From Patescibacteria group bacterium (GTDB lineage: Bacteria; Patescibacteriota; UBA1384; JBBRAU01): 63,491 nucleotides of DNA. The position numbers and the translations under genes are program-made. Below, piece by piece: positions 580 through 32,711 of this stretch (position 1 is its first letter; each line of letters starts with the position of its first letter). A model generated the notes under the pieces. It had not been told where the DNA came from and made no database searches. It saw only the letters and a list, made by a program, of their open reading frames with translations. Location of the stretch: NCBI GenBank assembly GCA_038206475.1, contig JBBRAU010000004.1, positions 1 through 63,491 of the forward strand, read 5' to 3'.

Positions 580-2040
580 TTAACAATTGTTGGTGATGCA
601 AATCGGGGCGGCACCGCTGTAGATGGTAAAATCATAGCCTTCTTGGACCCGACGGTCAGCCCGATTAACCATGGTTGTGAGCGTGCGCTGCGTTTTGCCA
701 AATTGACCAATGGCCTCAATAACCGTTTTGCCAGCGTCCAGGCGCTGAAGCAGAATATTGGTCTGATTACCGTTTTTGTTGGATAGTGGGTCTCCCCAAC
801 CAATTAACCAAACATCGGCGCCTACCGCCCGGAAGCGTATAAGCTCCGACCCTCTATAGCCCGCTGGGTCATTGGCACTGTTTAACAATATAGAGTTAGG
901 CGCAAAACCTGATTTATCATTTGATAAACTGGTGTGTGGTAAAAGTAAGCTCGGCTGAGGGTCATTAACTAAGGTGGTTTGCCTAACTTGGCCCGCTCCA
1001 TCAGCATGAATTACCTCTAGTCCATACATTACGCTGCCGAAAACACCGTTTAAGTCTGCCTCCCAGGAAAACTTAAATGTGCCATAGCCAACCGGCTTTA
1101 ACTGCGTTGGATTGTTAACATCAGGAACATCGGGGAAGGCCACGGTAAAAGCCGTATCTTTGGGAATTTTTATGGCATTCATTTTTTTTTGCAAAATGCA
1201 CAAAATGTAGTTTTGTGCTGTAGGCGTGGTGTCACCTGCCAAACCACAGAAGGTCTTTGCCTCGCCTGCATTGGCATTAAACTGGGCCAATTGGTCAGAA
1301 ATATAGGTACTCATATTCGTATCCGACGGAATGGGCTGTCCGGGGATGCGACCAATCATTTGCTCGCGGAATGAGATTTTTAAATCGTAGTAGCGGTCAG
1401 TCGGCTTCACGTCAGCTCCAACGGCATGAAGATAATCTTGATTATTGATGACTTTGGTACTGGTGCACGACCGGTCGAACGGTTCAGACATTTTTGGCTG
1501 CATGGCGCCACTGTTTGGACCTAAGTAGCTTAAGTTAACCCGCACGTAATACGGCGTCTCTGAGGTTGGAATGCTGGCATTTTCTTTCGACGATTGAGTA
1601 ATTTGATCGCCATTGAACGTCATGGTATATGAAGCTGCCACACAGCCAAAATCAATGGCTTTCTGACCGGCACTACTGCCGGCTGGGCCGCCGGGTAGTT
1701 CGACTTCGGGGTTGTAGCGGTAGCGCAGCAGGCCGTCTTCGATGCCGGCCTGGGCGGCGGCCAAAGCGATGCTCCCCTCCTCTACCTTGGTGGTGTTCTG
1801 CAGCTCCAGATGAACAATTTGGGCACCGCTAACCGTGGCCATACCAATAATGCCGACGATGATAAGCGTGGAAATAAGGGCATTAGCCCTTTTTGCTTGC
1901 GCAATAGGGGCATTAGCCCTTTTTGCTTGCGCAATAAGGGCATTAGCCGGCAATAGTGCCCTAGACCGGCGAGATGTGACTGTTTTGCTTATCTTTGTCA
2001 CACTTTTCACTAGCGTGATGACGGTAGGGAAAAACTTCAC
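580..2040 (-). CDS. type IV pilus-associated protein with PilX-like N-terminal membrane anchor (function tentative)
   Basis: 486-aa ORF, last gene of the pilin operon, with a 4-nt overlap with the upstream minor pilin. It has a single N-terminal hydrophobic helix (ISTLIIVGIIGMATVSGAQIVHLELQ) like PilX_N-type proteins. The rest has no recognised domain. Confidence 0.55.
   Translation of the reverse strand: MKFFPTVITLVKSVTKISKTVTSRRSRALLPANALIAQAKRANAPIAQAKRANALISTLIIVGIIGMATVSGAQIVHLELQNTTKVEEGSIALAAAQAGIEDGLLRYRYNPEVELPGGPAGSSAGQKAIDFGCVAASYTMTFNGDQITQSSKENASIPTSETPYYVRVNLSYLGPNSGAMQPKMSEPFDRSCTSTKVINNQDYLHAVGADVKPTDRYYDLKISFREQMIGRIPGQPIPSDTNMSTYISDQLAQFNANAGEAKTFCGLAGDTTPTAQNYILCILQKKMNAIKIPKDTAFTVAFPDVPDVNNPTQLKPVGYGTFKFSWEADLNGVFGSVMYGLEVIHADGAGQVRQTTLVNDPQPSLLLPHTSLSNDKSGFAPNSILLNSANDPAGYRGSELIRFRAVGADVWLIGWGDPLSNKNGNQTNILLQRLDAGKTVIEAIGQFGKTQRTLTTMVNRADRRVQEGYDFTIYSGAAPICITNNC
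1877..1948 (-). repeat. 30-bp in-frame tandem repeat, about 2.4 copies
   Basis: 1877-1906 and 1907-1936 match at 29 of 30 positions: (a/g)gggcattagccctttttgcttgcgcaata. A third, truncated copy follows. The repeat encodes the reiterated ALIAQAKRAN/APIAQAKRAN in the cytoplasmic N-terminus of the 486-aa protein. Confidence 0.85.
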
Positions 2041-3182
2041 GGGGCCTCCCGGTTAATTTGCAGCGGTGCGGCGTCAGCTTCTAGGTGGGTCACTTGTCGC
2101 AGACGCTCTGGCACTTGCTCTATAGCGCCATCGGAGGCAATCCGTTTGGTAGGCTCGGTGGTTAGCGCAATGTGCACGGTTGGTTTAAGCGGCGTCATGG
2201 TGTGGGTAGCGTAGCAACGGCCAACCAGCCGTTTATCGTCATTATTGTCGAGCTTAATGCCATTGCCTGGCGCAAAGCTGGAGGTATTGCTGATGGTGTT
2301 ATTGCTAAAACTGCGCCAAATAAAGCCACCCTCTCTTAACTCAACCCAACGTGCCTGCGGCGTGACCGTCGCCGAAGTCGGATTATCCGGTGGCCAGAAG
2401 TAGTAAATAAAGCGATGGATATCGGTGCTGCCCGAACCCGCTTCTAATTTAGCAAGTTCCGTTGCCGTTAGGCCGCTTTCGTCACGGACGCAGCTGACCG
2501 GCGCACCAGTCAAGGCAAAACTACTGACCGTAATATTATCAGACGACAACTGCGTCTCAACCTGGGAGGCATTAGCTCTGACCACAACGTCAAAATATGG
2601 GCTGCCGGGGATGTCTATCAAAATGTCCTTGGCCACACTAGAGTTTGCGATTGTTTGCGTGGGAGTGTTGCTTTGTTTATACTGCCGAGTTTGCAAAAAT
2701 AAAGCATTGTGCTTATCAAAACCGTTGCCAGCTGCTACCATTTTGACGTAGTAGCGATGCTCGGTGAGCAGCTCCAAACCGTCAGAGCCTGCCGTTGAGT
2801 GGTAGATCATAAGCGGTGCGGTGGCCGGGGTCGTGCAACTGGGGTCAAGCTGGCTGCTGTTTGCGCCCAGCGGGCAAACCGGAGGGTTAGTGTCAAAGAC
2901 GAAACTAGTTGCTGTGTTGGGCAAGATTGCGGCAAAGGTGCCGCCCAGTCGCACCAAGGCCTGGCTACCATTGGCGCCGCTAATATCGTCTGTGAGCTGA
3001 CTCATCACATTGCGTGCGCCGGAGCGACCAGTACTTTTAGCAGACAAGGTTTGCTGGCCCGCGATGGCCTGGCCAAGGGCGCCGATAGCAATAACTAAAA
3101 CCGCCGAGAAAATGCCAGTCGCAATAACAACCTCAAGTAAGGTAAAGCCGCGTCTGGACGGGATGTGTGTTTTATCCATCAC
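2037..3182 (-). CDS. minor pilin / pseudopilin with prepilin-type N-terminal cleavage-methylation motif
   Basis: N-terminus SRRG|FTLLEVVIATGIFSAVLVIAIG matches the class III signal (G|FTLxE plus hydrophobic helix). Lies in the pilin operon. Confidence 0.75.
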   Translation of the reverse strand: MMDKTHIPSRRGFTLLEVVIATGIFSAVLVIAIGALGQAIAGQQTLSAKSTGRSGARNVMSQLTDDISGANGSQALVRLGGTFAAILPNTATSFVFDTNPPVCPLGANSSQLDPSCTTPATAPLMIYHSTAGSDGLELLTEHRYYVKMVAAGNGFDKHNALFLQTRQYKQSNTPTQTIANSSVAKDILIDIPGSPYFDVVVRANASQVETQLSSDNITVSSFALTGAPVSCVRDESGLTATELAKLEAGSGSTDIHRFIYYFWPPDNPTSATVTPQARWVELREGGFIWRSFSNNTISNTSSFAPGNGIKLDNNDDKRLVGRCYATHTMTPLKPTVHIALTTEPTKRIASDGAIEQVPERLRQVTHLEADAAPLQINREAP

Positions 3183-3969
3183 TTCTCCAGTTGGTCAAAA
3201 CCGTGTCGGCCGCTTCTTGTCGACCATCCGCCCCACCCTGCCAAGTGACCACCACGTGCACCAACATGGCCGGTGGGTTTATCGTGTCGCTAAATACCAC
3301 GGGCTGCTTGGTAGCTTGATCGGTAATCGCCTGGTGATTGTAGTCGCAATTGCTGCTGCACGGATTACCAAGATAATCTTTACCGCTTGTAGTTGGATTA
3401 AACGGGGCCAGCGTAATGTAGCGGTGAAACTCTTGGCCTGAGCCGGCCACGTCGGTGGCTTGCACTTTGATAATTTCCACCAGACCACGGACAACGCCTG
3501 ACACCTCTGAGACAATTTGGCTTTGCACGGCGATTAGCCCTGGACTGCAGGTGCCGAGCTGACTGCTTAGCGTACTAACCAGGCCAAACCAATCTACTGT
3601 CCCCGCCACCACACAAGAAGATACATCAGAGGCCGTGACCACCCGCCAGCGCGGATTAGTGAGATCAGTTTTATCGTACATAAATGCCTGCGAAGCAGCA
3701 CTGTCCGTGAGATTAAATTTATGAGTACCGTTTCCAAGCCAAAAACCATCCACTCGCCAGTTTTCGTCACGAATAGCCTTAACTTCGTCAACGCCGGCTA
3801 AAGTTAGCGCATGTGCCTGGTTGCGCTGATCGGTGAAATTTGATGTTTTCTGGGCTGAGCTGGACAGTGTGGCCATAGAGCCAATAACCATAGCTAAAAT
3901 ACCGGAGGCAATAATAACCTCAGCCAGCGTGAAGCCCCCGTGAAAAGCTGATCTAGACACAATTGCCAC
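3172..3969 (-). CDS. minor pilin (PilV-like) with prepilin-type N-terminus
   Basis: N-terminus FHGG|FTLAEVIIASGILAMVIG. Overlaps neighbouring pilin genes, consistent with an operon. Confidence 0.75.
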   Translation of the reverse strand: MAIVSRSAFHGGFTLAEVIIASGILAMVIGSMATLSSSAQKTSNFTDQRNQAHALTLAGVDEVKAIRDENWRVDGFWLGNGTHKFNLTDSAASQAFMYDKTDLTNPRWRVVTASDVSSCVVAGTVDWFGLVSTLSSQLGTCSPGLIAVQSQIVSEVSGVVRGLVEIIKVQATDVAGSGQEFHRYITLAPFNPTTSGKDYLGNPCSSNCDYNHQAITDQATKQPVVFSDTINPPAMLVHVVVTWQGGADGRQEAADTVLTNWRSDG

Positions 3970-26007: not shown

Positions 26008-26551
26008 CCCCAGGCTTTAGCCTGGGGATGAAGGCCTGCCTGGAGCGAGTCACGTGAAAACACGTGGCGAGCGGAAGCTGCTTGTGGCAGACTGGCGATA
26101 TGAGCAGCAACCAGCCAGAGTTTTGGACCGGCGCGCATACGAAACATCGTTTGGTACACCACCTGTGCTGGATCCCAAAGTATCGCTGACGAATATTGCG
26201 CGGAGAACTGGCGCGCCGTCTGGTTGAACTTTTCCAACAGGCGGCAGAGGTGAACCAGTGGGGGTTGTACGAGTGTCAAGCCCTGCCGGACCACGTCCAC
26301 CTCTTCCTCCAGTTCAGCCCCAGTGAATCCGTCGCTGAGGTGGTTCAGAAATTCAAGGGTGGGTCCAGCTTCACACCACGGAAAGAGTTTGCTGAACTGG
26401 AGGAATTTCTCTGGGGAGATCAGTCTTGGTCGGACGGCTACTTTGCCGAAACAACCGGCAGGACGGATGAGCGCGTCATCCGTCGATATATTCAGAACCA
26501 GCGAGCCAGCGCTGCCACAGCCTAGACAAAGCCGCGGGCTTTAGCCCGCGG
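26008..26551 (+). mobile_element. IS200/IS605-family (IS200-type, tnpA only) element; ends approximate
   Basis: A Y1 (HUH) transposase gene is flanked by two subterminal hairpins of the same design. Left: ccccaggc-ttta-gcctgggg at 26008-26027. Right: ccgcgggc-ttta-gcccgcgg at 26532-26551. Confidence 0.7.
26100..26525 (+). pseudogene. tnpA: IS200-type transposase TnpA interrupted by an in-frame TGA
   Basis: ATG at 26100 gives MSSNQPEFWTGAHTKHRLVHHLCWIPKYR, then TGA at 26187-26189, then the same frame continues RILRGELARRL...DHVHLFL...WSDGYF...YIQNQ (track ORF 26196..26525). HUH and catalytic Tyr motifs are intact. Confidence 0.75.
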
Positions 26552-26756: not shown

Positions 26757-26830
26757 TGGCAGGCCCTGAGCGAATCGAACGCCCGACCGTGGTTTTGGAG
26801 ACCACTGTTTTGCCACTAAACTAAGGGCCC
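26757..26830 (-). tRNA. trnW: tRNA-Trp (anticodon CCA), CCA end encoded
   Basis: Cloverleaf read by hand: GGGCCCT/AGGGCCT acceptor, D arm GTTT..AAAC, anticodon stem GTGGT/ACCAC with loop CTCCAAA, T arm GGGCG TTCGATT CGCTC, discriminator G plus CCA. 74 nt. Confidence 0.9.
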
Positions 26831-26894
26831 GCACTTCATTCGGCCCTTTTTAGTCGCTTACGCGCCTAATAGGGGCCCGCACTTCATTTGGCCC
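26825..26894 (-). repeat. 48-nt-period duplication of the tRNA-Trp 5' end plus leader hairpin
   Basis: gggcccgcacttcattcggccc (26825-26846) and gggcccgcacttcatttggccc (26873-26894) match at 21 of 22 positions. The first copy includes nt 1-6 of the tRNA. Confidence 0.8.
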
Positions 26895-27004
26895 TTGCCA
26901 CTCACTACATGCTTATGATAAGGACTACGCGTACACAGTAGCATATTTTAGCTATTTCTGACATCAAAATGCCGGTGGTAACCGGCATTTTCCCGCTTTA
27001 AACC

Positions 27005-27199
27005 TTAGCGCTTTTGCGCTTGTGGTTTAGTGTTCGGCATTTTTTTCTCGTCGTGCTTGGTTAGCGCGTGATCGTGTTTACAGTACTTATCGCGGGAGAG
27101 TTTACCTTCCACGTTCCTTGTCTTGGGGACAAAGTAGTTGGTGCTGTTACACGTTGCGCAAACAAGCATGACGAGCGTGGCGCCTTTACCTTTAGCCAT
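27005..27199 (-). CDS. rpmG: 50S ribosomal protein L33
   Basis: MAKGKGATLVMLVCATCNSTNYFVPKTRN...KYCKHDHALTKH matches the L33 pattern. SD AAGGAG. Embedded in the tRNA cluster, as in many bacteria. Confidence 0.85.
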   Translation of the reverse strand: MAKGKGATLVMLVCATCNSTNYFVPKTRNVEGKLSRDKYCKHDHALTKHDEKKMPNTKPQAQKR

Positions 27200-27233: not shown

Positions 27234-27309
27234 TGGAGCTGAAGACGGGGATCAAACCCGTGACCTCGCCCTTACCAAGGGCGTGCTCTATCAACTGAGC
27301 TACTTCAGC
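27234..27309 (-). tRNA. trnT: tRNA-Thr (anticodon GGT), CCA end encoded
   Basis: GCTGAAG TA GCTC AGTTGATA GAGC A CGCCC TTGGTAA GGGCG AGGTC ACGGG TTTGATC CCCGT CTTCAGC T CCA. 76 nt. Confidence 0.9.
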
Positions 27310-27469
27310 GAACGCAGTGAGCTGAGGCAAGGTTCTGACGCAACGCGGCAGGTTCTTACTTCAGCGAACGCAGTGAGCTGAGGCAAGGTTCTGCTCTGCA
27401 AGAGCAGGTTCTTACTTCAGCACGAATGAAATGAGTGCGAAAGAAACGTTCTCATGCAGCGCATGAGGT
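27301..27469 (-). repeat. tandem array (period 56 nt, 3 units) reiterating the tRNA-Thr(GGT) 5' end with structured spacers
   Basis: 27301-27337 and 27357-27393 are identical at 37 of 37 positions (tacttcagcgaacgcagtgagctgaggcaaggttctg). A third, diverged unit starts at 27413. Each unit carries a 7-bp stem / 3-nt loop hairpin at 27335-51, 27391-407 and 27451-67, each with a different stem sequence. Confidence 0.85.
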
Positions 27470-27525
27470 GGTTATTCAGTCTGTATAAGGTCACGAGCTC
27501 CGCTTATCAAATGAGCTACTCACCC
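27470..27525 (-). pseudogene. decayed tRNA 5' half (tRNA-like fragment)
   Basis: The minus strand reads GGGTGAGTAGCTCATTTGATAAGCGGAGC. It shares GTAGCTCA(G/T)TTGATA with tRNA-Thr(GGT), but no anticodon arm, T arm or 3' acceptor strand follows. Confidence 0.4.
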
Positions 27526-27573
27526 TCTCCTTTGTACGGCATTTTAACCTTTTTGTCGAGAATCGCTTATGTT

Positions 27574-27593
27574 TGGTGGGCCGGGGAAGAACC
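27574..27593 (-). repeat. partial second copy of the tRNA-Tyr 3' end
   Basis: tggtgggccggg at 27574-27585 is identical to 27666-27677 (the complement of tRNA-Tyr nt 75-86). It then reads gaagaacc versus taggattcgaacc in the real gene. Confidence 0.7.
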
Positions 27594-27631
27594 TCTTGCT
27601 TCACTCGAGAACCTTGCTAGTCTGCACAGAA

Positions 27632-27662
27632 GAAAATACCCGAGCTTGGCTCGGGTATTTTC
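27632..27662 (-). terminator. intrinsic terminator after tRNA-Tyr
   Basis: 14-bp perfect stem gaaaatacccgagc/gctcgggtattttc with a 3-nt loop, beginning 4 nt after the tRNA-Tyr 3' end. T-rich 3' side on the minus strand. Confidence 0.7.
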
Positions 27663-27665
27663 TTC

Positions 27666-27751
27666 TGGTGGGCCGGGTAGGATTCGAACCTACGAAGCCG
27701 AATGGCAACAGATTTACAGTCTGCTCTCGTTGACCACTTGAGTACCGACCC
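27666..27751 (-). tRNA. trnY: tRNA-Tyr (anticodon GTA), long variable arm, CCA encoded
   Basis: GGGTCGG...GACTGTAAATC...long variable arm TGCCATTCGGCT...GGTTCGAATCC...CCGGCCCACCA. 86 nt, a class II tRNA as expected for bacterial Tyr. Confidence 0.9.
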
Positions 27752-27762
27752 TTAACATGTTC

Positions 27763-27838
27763 TGGAGCCGCCTCGCGGATTTGAACCGCGGACCTTTTCT
27801 TTACGAAAGAACTGCTCTACCACTGAGCTAAGGCGGCC
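27763..27838 (-). tRNA. trnT: tRNA-Thr (anticodon CGT), CCA encoded
   Basis: GGCCGCC TTA GCTC AGTGGTA GAGC A GTTCT TTCGTAA AGAAA AGGTC CGCGG TTCAAAT CCGCG AGGCGGC T CCA. 76 nt, 11 nt upstream of tRNA-Tyr. Confidence 0.9.
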
Positions 27839-28030
27839 TCACTTCGTTCGGCCTCTTGCCACTCGCTACGCTCGTGGTAAGGCGGCTCATTATACTCGCC
27901 TACCTTTTCTCTCGCGTTGATCGAGATAAGGCGGCGCGTTGTTTCACTGGTGTGCCTTTTTGCTCCCTACGGTTGCAATAACGCGGCATGTTTCAATCGC
28001 GTTAAACCAGCTCGGCATGCCTTAAACTAG
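27829..28030 (-). repeat. tandem array (period 49-52 nt, 4 units) reiterating the tRNA-Thr(CGT) 5' end
   Basis: Units start with taaggcggc at 27829, 27878 and 27927, and with taacgcggc at 27979. The first overlaps tRNA nt 2-10. Each unit folds into a hairpin whose stem differs between units. Confidence 0.7.
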
Positions 28031-32176: not shown

Positions 32177-32397
32177 TCCGATTCAGCAGCCATGCGAAGC
32201 ATGGTGGCTGGAGCGGAATGGATGGAGGAGCGTGATTGGCAACGTTCTGGCCGCAGGCCAGGTTGTTACCAACTGCGCCACACCCCGCACCACACAACTG
32301 GTCCACACAGTGGGCCGGTTGGGCGGTGTAGAACGTGCGCATGTTGGCAAGGTTACCGAACGAAGTGAGGTGTTCTTACCAACTGCGCCACACCCCG
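32156..32397 (-). repeat. three perfect copies of the first 21 nt of tRNA-Pro at about 110-nt period
   Basis: taccaactgcgccacaccccg occurs at 32156-32176 (inside the gene), 32267-32287 and 32377-32397. The intervening sequence is diverged but keeps a GGCAA(G/C)GTT-hairpin-GTTNT module. Confidence 0.85.
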
Positions 32398-32711
32398 ACA
32401 ACTTTCGTCTGCTTCCGAAGGGCCGGGCGGAAGGTGCTGATCGTGGCAAAGTTGGCAAGGTTTTCGAGCGGAGCGAGAAATCCTCGTATGGACATCGCTT
32501 CGCCTTATCCCCGCCCCGGAAAATTGGCGTTCAAACACCAAGTGGGTGCCCGCAGCCGACAGACCACGGTCCGCCGGCAATCTAGAGCGTTGTTTTAACG
32601 CACCGAAGTGGAAAAACAGCGCCGGTCAGAGACCTGCTCCCATAAATAAAAGTAGAACCCAATTTTCCGAGTGCGAGGTACGCTTACATTAGCACATTTT
32701 CATCGAAATTA

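Follow-up and report, generated by a model that had tools for sequence, protein, structure and literature searches.

We analysed a 63,491-nt stretch of DNA (the window, contig JBBRAU010000004.1) from a bacterium of the Candidate Phyla Radiation (CPR), and within it a tandem array of 56-nt units that abuts the 5' end of the gene for tRNA-Thr(GGT). The scans of this genome covered this 63-kb window. The array sits in a minus-strand cluster with the order tRNA-Thr(CGT), tRNA-Tyr, terminator hairpin, array, tRNA-Thr(GGT), rpmG (L33) and tRNA-Trp:

27837-27763, minus strand: tRNA-Thr(CGT) (ARAGORN/Rfam)
27751-27666, minus strand: tRNA-Tyr (ARAGORN/Rfam)
27627-27667, minus strand: strong terminator hairpin 3' of tRNA-Tyr
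27234-27309, minus strand: functional tRNA-Thr(GGT), CCA encoded (ARAGORN; Rfam RF00005, 66.2 bits)
27005-27199, minus strand: rpmG (Pfam L33), starting 35 nt 3' of tRNA-Thr(GGT)
26830-26757, minus strand: tRNA-Trp

The array reaches to about 27524. It comprises two near-identical units, a diverged third and a degenerate fourth copy of the tRNA-Thr 5' part (R1 is the covariance model of the hairpin module described below):

27310-27365, minus strand: U1, 56 nt; tRNA nt 1-9, AGAAC-C, a 17-nt hairpin with 6/7 pairs, ACC-TTGCC, CCTCAGC-T-CAC-TGCGTTC
27366-27421, minus strand: U2, 56 nt; identical to U1 except for 10 central hairpin bases, with a perfect 7-bp hairpin
27422-27484, minus strand: U3, older and diverged; degenerate tRNA piece (ACTGAATAA) and a perfect 7-bp hairpin (alignment to U2, z 4.6; R1, 42.3 bits)
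27485-27524, minus strand: U4, degenerate tRNA-Thr(GGT) 5' part with D-arm (GGTGAGTAGCTCATTTGATAAGCGGAGC...) (16-nt BLAST match, 93.8%; alignment z 4.9)

A preliminary description of this DNA had drawn attention to the repeat. The array is real and extends beyond the coordinates first given for it, and two details of that account, the stem of unit 1 and the claim that the stems are unrelated, were wrong. The motif tacttcagc, the reverse complement of tRNA-Thr(GGT) nt 1-9, recurs as described at 27301 (within the tRNA), 27357 and 27413, and Tandem Repeats Finder recovers the 56-nt period over 27301-27421 (2.2 copies, 91% matches). The 37-mer said to be identical between units 1 and 2 is so, and an additional identical 18-mer was found. 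U1 and U2 agree at 46/56 positions. All 10 differences fall on the 10 consecutive positions of the hairpin centre (27338-27347 vs 27394-27403), and because they are consecutive the change is a block replacement, not a set of scattered substitutions. The flanks, described as conserved throughout, are so in units 1 and 2, and are degenerate in unit 3 (GAAACGTT ... GTGGTTA).

On the tRNA strand a unit reads GCTGAAGTA|A-GAAC-C[hairpin]ACC-TTGCC|TCAGC-T-CAC, with the hairpin module placed right after tRNA-Thr nt 1-9. On the plus strand it reads GCTGAGG-C-AAG-GTT-[CTGCTCT GCA AGAGCAG]-GTT-CTT-A-CTTCAGC followed by an 11-nt linker. The 21-nt arms GCTGAGGCAAGGTTCTGCTCT and AGAGCAGGTTCTTACTTCAGC are 76% complementary, and U1 folds as one long hairpin (-18.6 kcal/mol, z -2.7; R1, 49.8 bits, plus strand). 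U2 folds at -22.8 kcal/mol (minus) vs -24.8 kcal/mol (plus), with z about -3 and an R1 score of 51 bits. The asymmetry of the outer helix, G.U on the plus strand and A.C on the minus strand, is as first stated. The 3' part of the unit, CCTCAGC-T-CAC-TGCGTT, resembles the tRNA 3' end and its trailer, CTTCAGC-T-CCA-TCGTT.

Each of the first three units carries an inner hairpin:

27335-27351: U1, ctgAcgc-aac-gcgGcag, with an A.G mismatch; missing from the list of perfect hairpins
27391-27407: U2, ctgctct-gca-agagcag, perfect 7 bp; flagged as terminator-like on the plus strand
27451-27467: U3, ctcatgc-agc-gcatgag, perfect 7 bp; flagged as terminator-like on both strands

A 7-bp stem with a 3-nt loop had been assigned to every unit. 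Those at 27391-27407 and 27451-27467 are perfect, and unit 1 reaches only 6/7 pairs: a27338 faces g27348, an A.G mismatch (C.T on the opposite strand), and because of it the stem changes cannot be called 'fully' compensatory. Nor are the stems unrelated, as the closing pairs C-G and T-A are common to all three and to other members of the family. The central observation, a conserved paired structure whose sequence is replaced, survives these corrections, and the covariation is stronger than first noted, since it extends over seven copies at three tRNA loci. In U3, moreover, AAC/GTT stands in place of AAG/CTT, a compensatory change. Perfect 7-bp triloop hairpins are singly not rare (7 in the window vs 4.0 +/- 1.9 expected), and triloop hairpins are not enriched window-wide (24 vs 18.8 expected), being unusual only in their clustering at tRNA flanks; two perfect hairpins and one of 6/7 pairs in a single repeat register are rare by chance. 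In a six-copy alignment, made by hand and fitted to the structure, 91.5% of cells are paired vs 71.2% in shuffles (0/500 reach the observed value), and slid-alignment controls give 31-54%. Both sides change in 9/12 pairs, AAG/CTT to AAC/GTT occurring twice. Because palindromes pair on both strands, covariation cannot separate RNA from DNA, and in a palindromic DNA insert the pairing can persist without selection on RNA. The window holds no donor elsewhere for the U1 or U3 hairpin centres.

A covariance-model scan, the check proposed in the preliminary description, bears out a family. Run with filters off, R1 gives six copies scoring 42-51 bits and a seventh (P0, below) at 17.2 bits (E 0.035), with no further copy in the window; the same model found no matches in 152 kb of other CPR loci. 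Of the seven modules, those at tRNA-Thr(GGT) and tRNA-Pro are on the upstream side of the gene and the one at tRNA-Tyr is on its downstream side. By these scores, the Thr units belong to the same module family as the Pro units. The loci beyond the Thr(GGT) array are:

27574-27626, minus strand: module copy (CTAGCAAG GTT CTCGAGTGAAGCAAGAG GTT CTTCC); R1, 47.7 bits; repeat D7, inverted repeat I1; 12-nt BLAST match
27838-27987, minus strand: array upstream of tRNA-Thr(CGT), units of 49, 49 and 52 nt (repeats D1, D4)
26822-26900, minus strand: 48-nt repeat upstream of tRNA-Trp, copying the tRNA 5' end and the leader hairpin GGGCC-RAATGAAGTGC-GGGCC (repeat D3)
32177-32500, minus strand: array upstream of tRNA-Pro(GGG), with P2 at 32177-32287, P1 at 32288-32397 and P0 at 32398-~32500

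Every first-in-operon tRNA in the window shows the same architecture. Copies of the tRNA 5' end lie at -56 and -112 for Thr(GGT), at -49 and -98 for Thr(CGT), with a degenerate third ~52 nt farther up, and at -111 and -221, 21 nt each, for tRNA-Pro. The Thr(CGT) units begin with tRNA nt 1-9 (9/9, 9/9 and 8/9 matches) followed by a hairpin at the D-arm position, and a TATAAT closes the 3' end of the middle unit (about 27888-27893). The module at 27574-27626 is inverted and abuts a 17-nt copy of the tRNA-Tyr 3' end; it is located 92 nt 3' of tRNA-Tyr, past the tRNA-Tyr terminator (27627-27667). Acceptor-like pairing drops with distance from the tRNA, from 7/7 in tRNA-Thr(CGT) itself to 5/7, 5/7 and 3/7 in its units, and is lost in U3. 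This supports pseudogenes, for which such decay is expected.

The origin of the flanks is clearest at the Pro array. P1 and P2 both start with an exact copy of tRNA-Pro nt 1-21 (21/21); the sequence after it resembles tRNA-Gly(GCC) and is interrupted by the hairpin. The period is 110-111 nt, close to one tRNA plus a ~32-nt spacer; P0 is a third, degenerate unit farther upstream. Once its 15-nt insert is removed, the P1 body AGAACACC[TCACTTCGTTCGGTA]ACCTTGCCAA equals tRNA-Gly(GCC) nt 20-37 at 18/18 positions. tRNA-Gly(GCC) tops 63 tRNAs compared with P1 (26.5 vs a median of 12.5), and 500 shuffles give a mean of 13.2 and a maximum of 22.8. P2 retains ACGTTGCCAA and then TTCCGC-T-CCA, a Gly-type 3' end, in the correct order, and P0 retains ACCTTGCCAA. 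The Pro units thus read as hybrid pseudo-tRNAs, in which Pro nt 1-21 pass, at the GGTA of the D loop, into a remainder of Gly type; unequal crossing-over between a Gly gene and a Pro gene next to it would produce this composition. The Thr(GGT) units would be hybrid pseudo-tRNAs as well, through their membership of the family, and they stand in the place that glyT has in thrU-tyrU-glyT-thrT operons. What looks like a 'conserved internal loop' in the module is therefore Gly sequence, GAAC on one side of the insert and ACC on the other, and the 'acceptor-like helix' is likewise inherited from a tRNA. A scan of viral contigs for an intact tRNA-Gly(GCC) interrupted at the module site gave 0 matches. 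As a separate observation, the 3' spacer of each Pro unit (32177-32210, 32290-32320 and 32400-32440, minus strand) contains a small hairpin in a similar place and of unrelated sequence (CCATGC-TTC-GCATGG, CCAC-TGT-GTGG and CTTCCG...CGGAAG).

The arrays contain a second type of hairpin. Inward from its stem it has G.A and A.G in tandem, then two base pairs that close a GNA triloop, with the same elements mirrored on the way out. A motif scan finds 8 such hairpins in the window vs 0.12 +/- 0.34 expected, all of them in tRNA-upstream arrays; they occur on the tRNA strand at Thr(CGT) and Trp and on the opposite strand at Thr(GGT) and Pro. Those of the two Thr arrays are:

27305-27325, 27361-27381 and 27420-27438, plus strand (27305-27438 overall): three G.A/GNA hairpins of the Thr(GGT) array
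27835-27853, 27859-27877 and 27960-27978: G.A/GNA hairpins of the Thr(CGT) array

In the Thr(GGT) array the stems are made of the antisense copy of tRNA nt 1-7 and an inverted partner, enclosing the cores GAACGCAGTGA (twice) and GAATGAAATGA. In three tRNAs, the 5' end of the tRNA itself supplies one arm of such a hairpin. Both cores, GAACGAAGTGA followed by ACCTTGCCAA, and GAGCGTAGCGA, recur with other stems in an unrelated metagenome contig (L002). L002 carries no tRNA; of its two 11-nt cores (sites 2790-2970 and 222-242), one lies in a ~150-nt nested palindrome between divergent genes, along with several CGAAG mini-hairpins, and the second overlaps the stop codon of a gene. The motif CCTCACTTCGTTCGG...CTTGCCA had 0 matches in GTDB genomes and matched 3 metagenome contigs, of which only L002 is convincing; TTGGCAAS-GTT...GTT-STTACCAA had 0 matches in viral contigs. 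A literature search on the motif strings and on CPR tRNA insertions returned nothing relevant.

We compared the locus with those of other CPR assemblies. The order TPR gene, tRNA-Thr, tRNA-Tyr, ..., tRNA-Thr, L33, tRNA-Trp is kept in L004 and L007. Neither of these syntenic loci, nor L008, has arrays; L024 and L025 contain no tRNA. Seventeen nucleotides upstream of U4 lies the following feature:

27541-27546, minus strand: candidate -10 box TAAAAT (GGTTAAAAT; context GGTTAAAATG)

Its counterpart TGTTAAAATAA in L004 and L007 lies 20 nt upstream of an intact tRNA-Thr, with no repeats there. TAAAAT may therefore be the -10 box of an old promoter, from which serial duplication could have displaced the working tRNA-Thr gene by ~215 nt; a promoter scan found no full two-hexamer site at the candidate box. 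A sigma-70 promoter within each unit was considered and rejected, as TTGCC plus 17 nt is not followed by an acceptable -10 box and a scan of the minus strand yielded none.

Elsewhere in CPR, three assemblies (L018, L019 and L012) have truncated tRNA copies beside an intact tRNA, with clean hairpin inserts in D, anticodon or T loops. In L018 (996-1123, minus strand) the intact tRNA-Tyr gene is preceded, at a distance of 272 nt, by a truncated copy that lacks the 3' acceptor strand. Three segments of the copy (20, 16 and 32 nt) match the intact tRNA-Tyr at 100% identity, and G+C-rich hairpin inserts separate them, at the D loop, within the anticodon and at the T loop; two of the inserts are homologous to each other (CCNCCAGAGGCGGAT plus a variable hairpin). 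L019 (2448-2540) has two pseudo tRNA-Thr 5' copies (GCCGTCGTAGCTCA...) upstream of tRNA-Thr(GGT), the second with a D-loop double hairpin after GGTA. The own 5' end of the L019 tRNA-Thr(GGT) differs (GCCACTG...), and the copies are closer to the tRNA-Thr of the metagenome-assembled genomes (MAGs) L012 and L014 than to the one on their own contig. L012, an Uhrbacteria MAG (541-990 and 2868-3340), has a tRNA-Tyr 5' fragment with a hairpin insert, a GIY-YIG-like open reading frame (ORF) and an intact tRNA-Tyr; its 130-nt tandem repeats after tRNA-Thr(GGT) carry tRNA nt 30-75, and a CCCGCC...GGCGGG double hairpin occurs only at tRNA-fragment junctions. The pseudo-tRNA/hairpin phenomenon is recurrent in CPR, and module sequences differ among genomes.

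We consider the array most likely to be the proximal part of a ~215-nt stretch of pseudo-tRNA remnants (27310-27524) between the old promoter position and tRNA-Thr(GGT). More broadly, we put at roughly 0.5 the probability that it represents decayed mosaic leftovers of duplicated tRNA genes, that is, hybrid pseudo-tRNAs with palindromic inserts. Under this explanation, short tandem duplications or unequal crossing-over between neighbouring tRNA genes would have straddled the 5' border of the gene, with crossover points in segments that tRNAs share (G-T-A at nt 7-9, the D-loop GGTA). A 56-nt unit would then join three parts: nt 1-9 of tRNA-Thr, a stretch of D stem and anticodon arm like that of tRNA-Gly(GCC) (A-GAAC-C ... 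ACC-TTGCC), and an end that resembles an acceptor 3' end (CCTCAGC-T-CAC) and is followed by a trailer. On this view, descent from tRNA sequence explains both the 'acceptor-like' outer helix and the conservation of the flanks. That the working gene is always last requires no selection, because a duplication with one breakpoint inside the gene and one outside leaves an intact and a truncated copy. The 15-17-nt hairpin would be a palindrome inserted into the Gly-like anticodon stem, always at the same site, and the sole part that turns over. Its arms could stay complementary if one arm serves as template for revising the other (by snap-back or template-switch synthesis) or if whole blocks are exchanged within the family, and gene conversion from the adjacent tRNA may keep the tRNA pieces exact. 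Selection on a tRNA-like RNA would not be needed for the pairing to be kept. Transcription of the array would probably be passive, within a long 5' leader of the tRNA-Thr/rpmG unit that RNase P removes by cutting at the start of the tRNA.

Several results weigh against this explanation. The tRNA pieces are exact (9/9; 21/21) and the unit bodies near-random (P1 vs P2, z 2.4), a combination that obliges one to add gene conversion, repeated events or selection to decay. The mechanism of the U1/U2 replacement is unproven because the window has no donor for either centre. The hairpins stay perfect in old, decayed units (U3 and the Thr(CGT) units). Taken alone, the Thr units resemble tRNA-Gly no better than other tRNAs, and their assignment rests on homology with the Pro modules. 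Moreover, the G.A/GNA hairpins keep their non-Watson-Crick positions over at least 8 copies with different stems, which looks like recognition, not neutral debris, and keeps alive a reading based on recognition, whether by a mobile element or as a functional RNA. Finally, no close relative was available to date or polarise the events.

The strand and structure of the units bear on whether they are selected RNAs, either minihelices released from the pre-tRNA leader by RNase P/Z or leader hairpins that can pair with the 5' strand of the tRNA and control its folding or processing. The covariation is strong, and each unit forms a stable hairpin (z about -3) in which an acceptor-like helix is followed by U-CAC, where the tRNA has U-CCA. 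With a likely promoter on one side of the array and the tRNA on the other, the minus strand is probably transcribed, and the leader hairpins of three tRNAs take one arm from the 5' nucleotides of the tRNA itself. The tRNA-like minihelix of the preliminary description was partly right as to ancestry (nt 1-9, the acceptor-like helix and the 3' part) and is unsupported as to function: no tRNA model matches it, and a unit folds into one long imperfect hairpin about equally well on both strands. ARAGORN finds only 5 true tRNAs, and the Rfam models RF00005/CL00001 give none in 27310-27530 or 32177-32500 even at E<=10. In the tRNA sense the helix has 6/7 pairs and a U-CAC in place of an NCCA tail. 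The distal hairpin has a 3-nt loop with no T-loop motif, and a 3x3 internal loop parts the two helices. The tRNA-sense helix also carries three A.C mismatches that are G.U on the other strand. The mixed orientation of modules relative to the neighbouring tRNAs argues against a role on the pre-tRNA strand, 2/3 of the Thr(CGT) units lie upstream of the likely -10 box, and relatives of the same synteny lack arrays. Palindromes, as noted, pair on both strands and leave covariation blind to RNA vs DNA. Selected RNAs are an unlikely but live account. Strand choice from G.U vs A.C was tried and set aside as uninformative, favouring plus 3 to 1 in the Thr units and the opposite in the Pro modules, and a search for known RNA families (Rfam at gathering thresholds and at E<=10) yielded tRNAs and noise only. 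Slightly less doubtful, though still improbable, is a miniature mobile or recombination element that targets tRNA borders, its folded single strand being recognised by an HUH/Y1 transposase, an integron-integrase-like recombinase or another enzyme. Insertion at G-T-A/GGTA sites would duplicate the tRNA end, and repeated insertion would build the arrays. Modules occur at five tRNA loci in both orientations and nowhere else, and the junctions of the Thr(GGT) and Pro arrays always follow GTA. Unpaired positions are kept (G.A pairs, GNA triloops and a C x A mismatch) as stems vary, the same 11-nt cores recur with other stems in the unrelated L002, other CPR MAGs show clean hairpin inserts in otherwise 100%-identical tRNA segments, and a gene for an IS200-like TnpA lies 230 nt from tRNA-Trp. 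The L018 and L019 inserts break tRNA segments that are 100% identical to the intact copy nearby; the window copies all share one insert site, with no empty site among them. No intact candidate enzyme is present: the TnpA gene has an in-frame TGA, its end hairpins (8-bp stems, TTTA loop) are unlike the modules, and no integrase was found among the 28 larger ORFs scanned with Pfam (about half of the ORFs of >=150 aa). The duplicated 'target' measures 9, 21 or 17 nt, with no fixed target-site duplication, the attC consensus does not fit, the 152 kb of other CPR loci gave no matches, and tRNA-Gly descent already explains the conserved flanks. In a broader and more novel version, also rather improbable, CPR bacteria would carry a new class of miniature hairpin elements, marked by tandem G.A pairs, GNA triloops and stems that vary, which work as folded single strands in invading or rearranging tRNA genes and their copies; the arrays here and in Uhrbacteria-like MAGs would be what they leave behind. 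Alternatively, the units would be processed into functional small RNAs.

Two further explanations are far less probable. The hairpins might serve as intrinsic terminators, or pause sites, for transcripts that enter the tRNA genes in antisense; on the plus strand a U-rich run follows each of them. A consensus scan, which is lax, flags 27390-27408 (+TTCTTACTTC) and 27450-27468 (+TGGTTATTCA) on the plus strand, and finds 10 terminator-like sites in 1.8 kb vs 2.3 expected. The tails, however, are weak and interrupted, no nearby plus-strand gene or promoter feeds the array and no plus-strand unit ends there. The copy 3' of tRNA-Tyr and the Thr(CGT) and Trp hairpins point the opposite way, and the region already has canonical strong terminators at 27627-27667 and 26966-26991. 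Equally remote is an artefact of short-read metagenome assembly, with the copy number or the U1/U2 pair reflecting two strain variants strung in tandem. The contig is 63 kb long, its proteins have no exact match in the collections searched, and U1 and U2 differ in one 10-nt block only, as alleles might. Against this, the junction ...GCGTTCGCTGAAGTA|AGAACC needs spanning reads, a 9-nt repeat cannot create a junction at usual k-mer sizes, and the diverged U3 and U4, together with independent arrays at four other tRNAs, show real tandem structure.

Known systems resemble the array in part. The tyrT locus of E. coli, reportedly described by Egan and Landy in 1978 and by Bosl and Kersten in 1991, is said to have a 178-bp unit repeated 3.14 times that carries the last 19 nt of tRNA-Tyr and is the source of rtT RNA. 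The window array is a repeat of this tRNA-border type, with head-to-tail units that abut the tRNA, each bearing a terminal tRNA segment. It differs in copying the 5' side (nt 1-9 or 1-21), in its units of 48-111 nt, in hybrids with other tRNAs, in the palindromic insert and in occurring at several loci. Unequal recombination over the border of the gene accounts for the tyrT repeat, which is transcribed together with its tRNA, as is proposed here. A tRNA-Pro/tRNA-His cluster with repeated pseudogenes was reportedly found in Photobacterium phosphoreum by Giroux et al. in 1988. Shared with clusters of that type are repeated, tRNA-derived, non-functional units and a period of about one gene plus spacer (here 110-111 nt, Pro); the present units, unlike those, are Pro 5'/Gly 3' hybrids, heavily deleted (45-nt Thr mini-copies) and interrupted by hairpins.

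Genomic islands usually displace the 3' part of a tRNA. Displaced tRNA fragments end the integrase-borne islands of the Islander database (PMC4383910). The likeness is an exact copy of a tRNA segment beside a regenerated intact gene, and the difference is that islands span kilobases and encode an integrase, whereas here 39-90 nt separate the copies, no integrase was found in the ORFs scanned and the 5' part is copied; the repeats are thus no island att duplication. Mitochondrial GC clusters, double-hairpin elements and repetitive hairpin-forming elements are ~15-50-nt inserts that invade non-essential DNA (PMC4478555, PMC2800124). The clean hairpin insertions in the L018 and L019 pseudo-tRNA copies resemble them; those elements are organellar, and any mobility of the elements described here is hypothetical.

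The REP/BIME/REPIN repeats of proteobacteria are associated with RAYT (IS200-like) transposases, are scattered over whole genomes at the 3' ends of genes and share a conserved GTAG head. The modules share with them short imperfect intergenic palindromes, stem variants that keep pairing and a nearby IS200-like gene. Unlike REPs, they are confined to tRNA flanks in the 63-kb window and built on tRNA-derived sequence; they have no GTAG head, and the IS gene has ordinary ends and a stop. The attC sites of integrons have RYYYAAC / GTTRRRY boxes and are served by IntI, with cassettes. Conserved flanks with unpaired bases, a highly variable terminal hairpin and arrayed units are common ground. The flanks here, GCAAG-GTTC ... 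G-GTTCTTAC, are instead tRNA-Gly-like, without RYYYAAC / GTTRRRY boxes (GTTCTTA misfits GTTRRRY), IntI or cassettes, and no integrase was seen in the ORFs scanned.

CPR genomes are small and typically have single-copy tRNA genes. If the units are pseudo-tRNA remnants, in at least one CPR genome each first-in-operon tRNA trails hybrid remnants of this kind, which bears on the instability of tRNA gene borders in small genomes and on tRNA annotation and the choice of integration-site markers in MAGs. It would also be a caution that compensatory-looking hairpins in palindromic tRNA-derived repeats are no proof of a selected RNA. Should a recognition-based reading hold instead, the G.A/GNA motif, strongly enriched and found strictly beside tRNA genes, would be the sign of a new kind of mini-element that targets tRNAs, or of a new leader RNA; to our knowledge, almost nothing has been reported on mobile DNA or RNA processing in this phylum.

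The IS200/IS605-type element near the cluster was examined for a relation to the array; this was rejected, the end hairpins of the element being unlike the modules. Its Y1 transposase gene (26064-26525, plus strand; Pfam Y1_Tnp, 6.8e-26) has the in-frame TGA at 26187-26189 (PKYR*RILRGE), and the element lies ~230 nt 3' of tRNA-Trp, flanked by hairpins near 26010-26030 and 26532-26551. The end hairpins, CCCCAGGC-TTTA-GCCTGGGG and CCGCGGGC-TTTA-GCCCGCGG, differ by compensatory changes. Phage matches to GGCAAG..CCGAACGAAGTGAGG fall within the ORF of a DUF1376 replication protein (SSLRSDxCPE) and were set aside as coding or unrelated. In phages L020-L023 (L021, 5357-5383; Rhizobium phage RHph_N28_2, MN988516) a hairpin GGGCAAG-N3-[CATCC GAACGAAGTGA GGATG] is kept in the linker of the DUF1376 protein. 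This linker is poorly conserved and there encodes SSLRSDxCPE, and the stem is compensatory between phages (AATCC/GGATT); by analogy with lambda O, the hairpin could be an origin-type DNA element within a gene.

Sampling of the lineage is very sparse. RarA shares 77-78% identity with many CPR proteins, and the tRNA-Tyr 26-mer matches mostly Uhrbacteria, Yanofskybacteria and other Patescibacteria MAGs; the closest relatives of HolB are merely 48% and 40% identical, and no window protein had an exact match in the protein collections searched. For the L33 protein (64 aa; Pfam 5.3e-08), a word search of 5.8 billion proteins gave no relative besides itself at E<=1e-5. The two tRNA-Thr genes of the window have the anticodons CGT and GGT, and the syntenic genes in L004 and L007 have GGT and TGT. 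The T-arm of the window tRNA-Thr(CGT) equals that of the L004 tRNA-Thr(GGT), which suggests anticodon switching. ORFs resembling HNH endonucleases lie in or beside the Thr-Tyr-Thr-Trp tRNA cluster of L008 (2700-3120, between tRNA-Thr and tRNA-Tyr) and L004 (2800-3195). Far from the cluster, at 1873-1948, a 30-nt tandem repeat (2.5 copies, 95%) with an AAGGGC-ATTA-GCCCTT hairpin lies in the 5' part of a 486-aa ORF (580-2040, minus strand), in frame as 10 codons.

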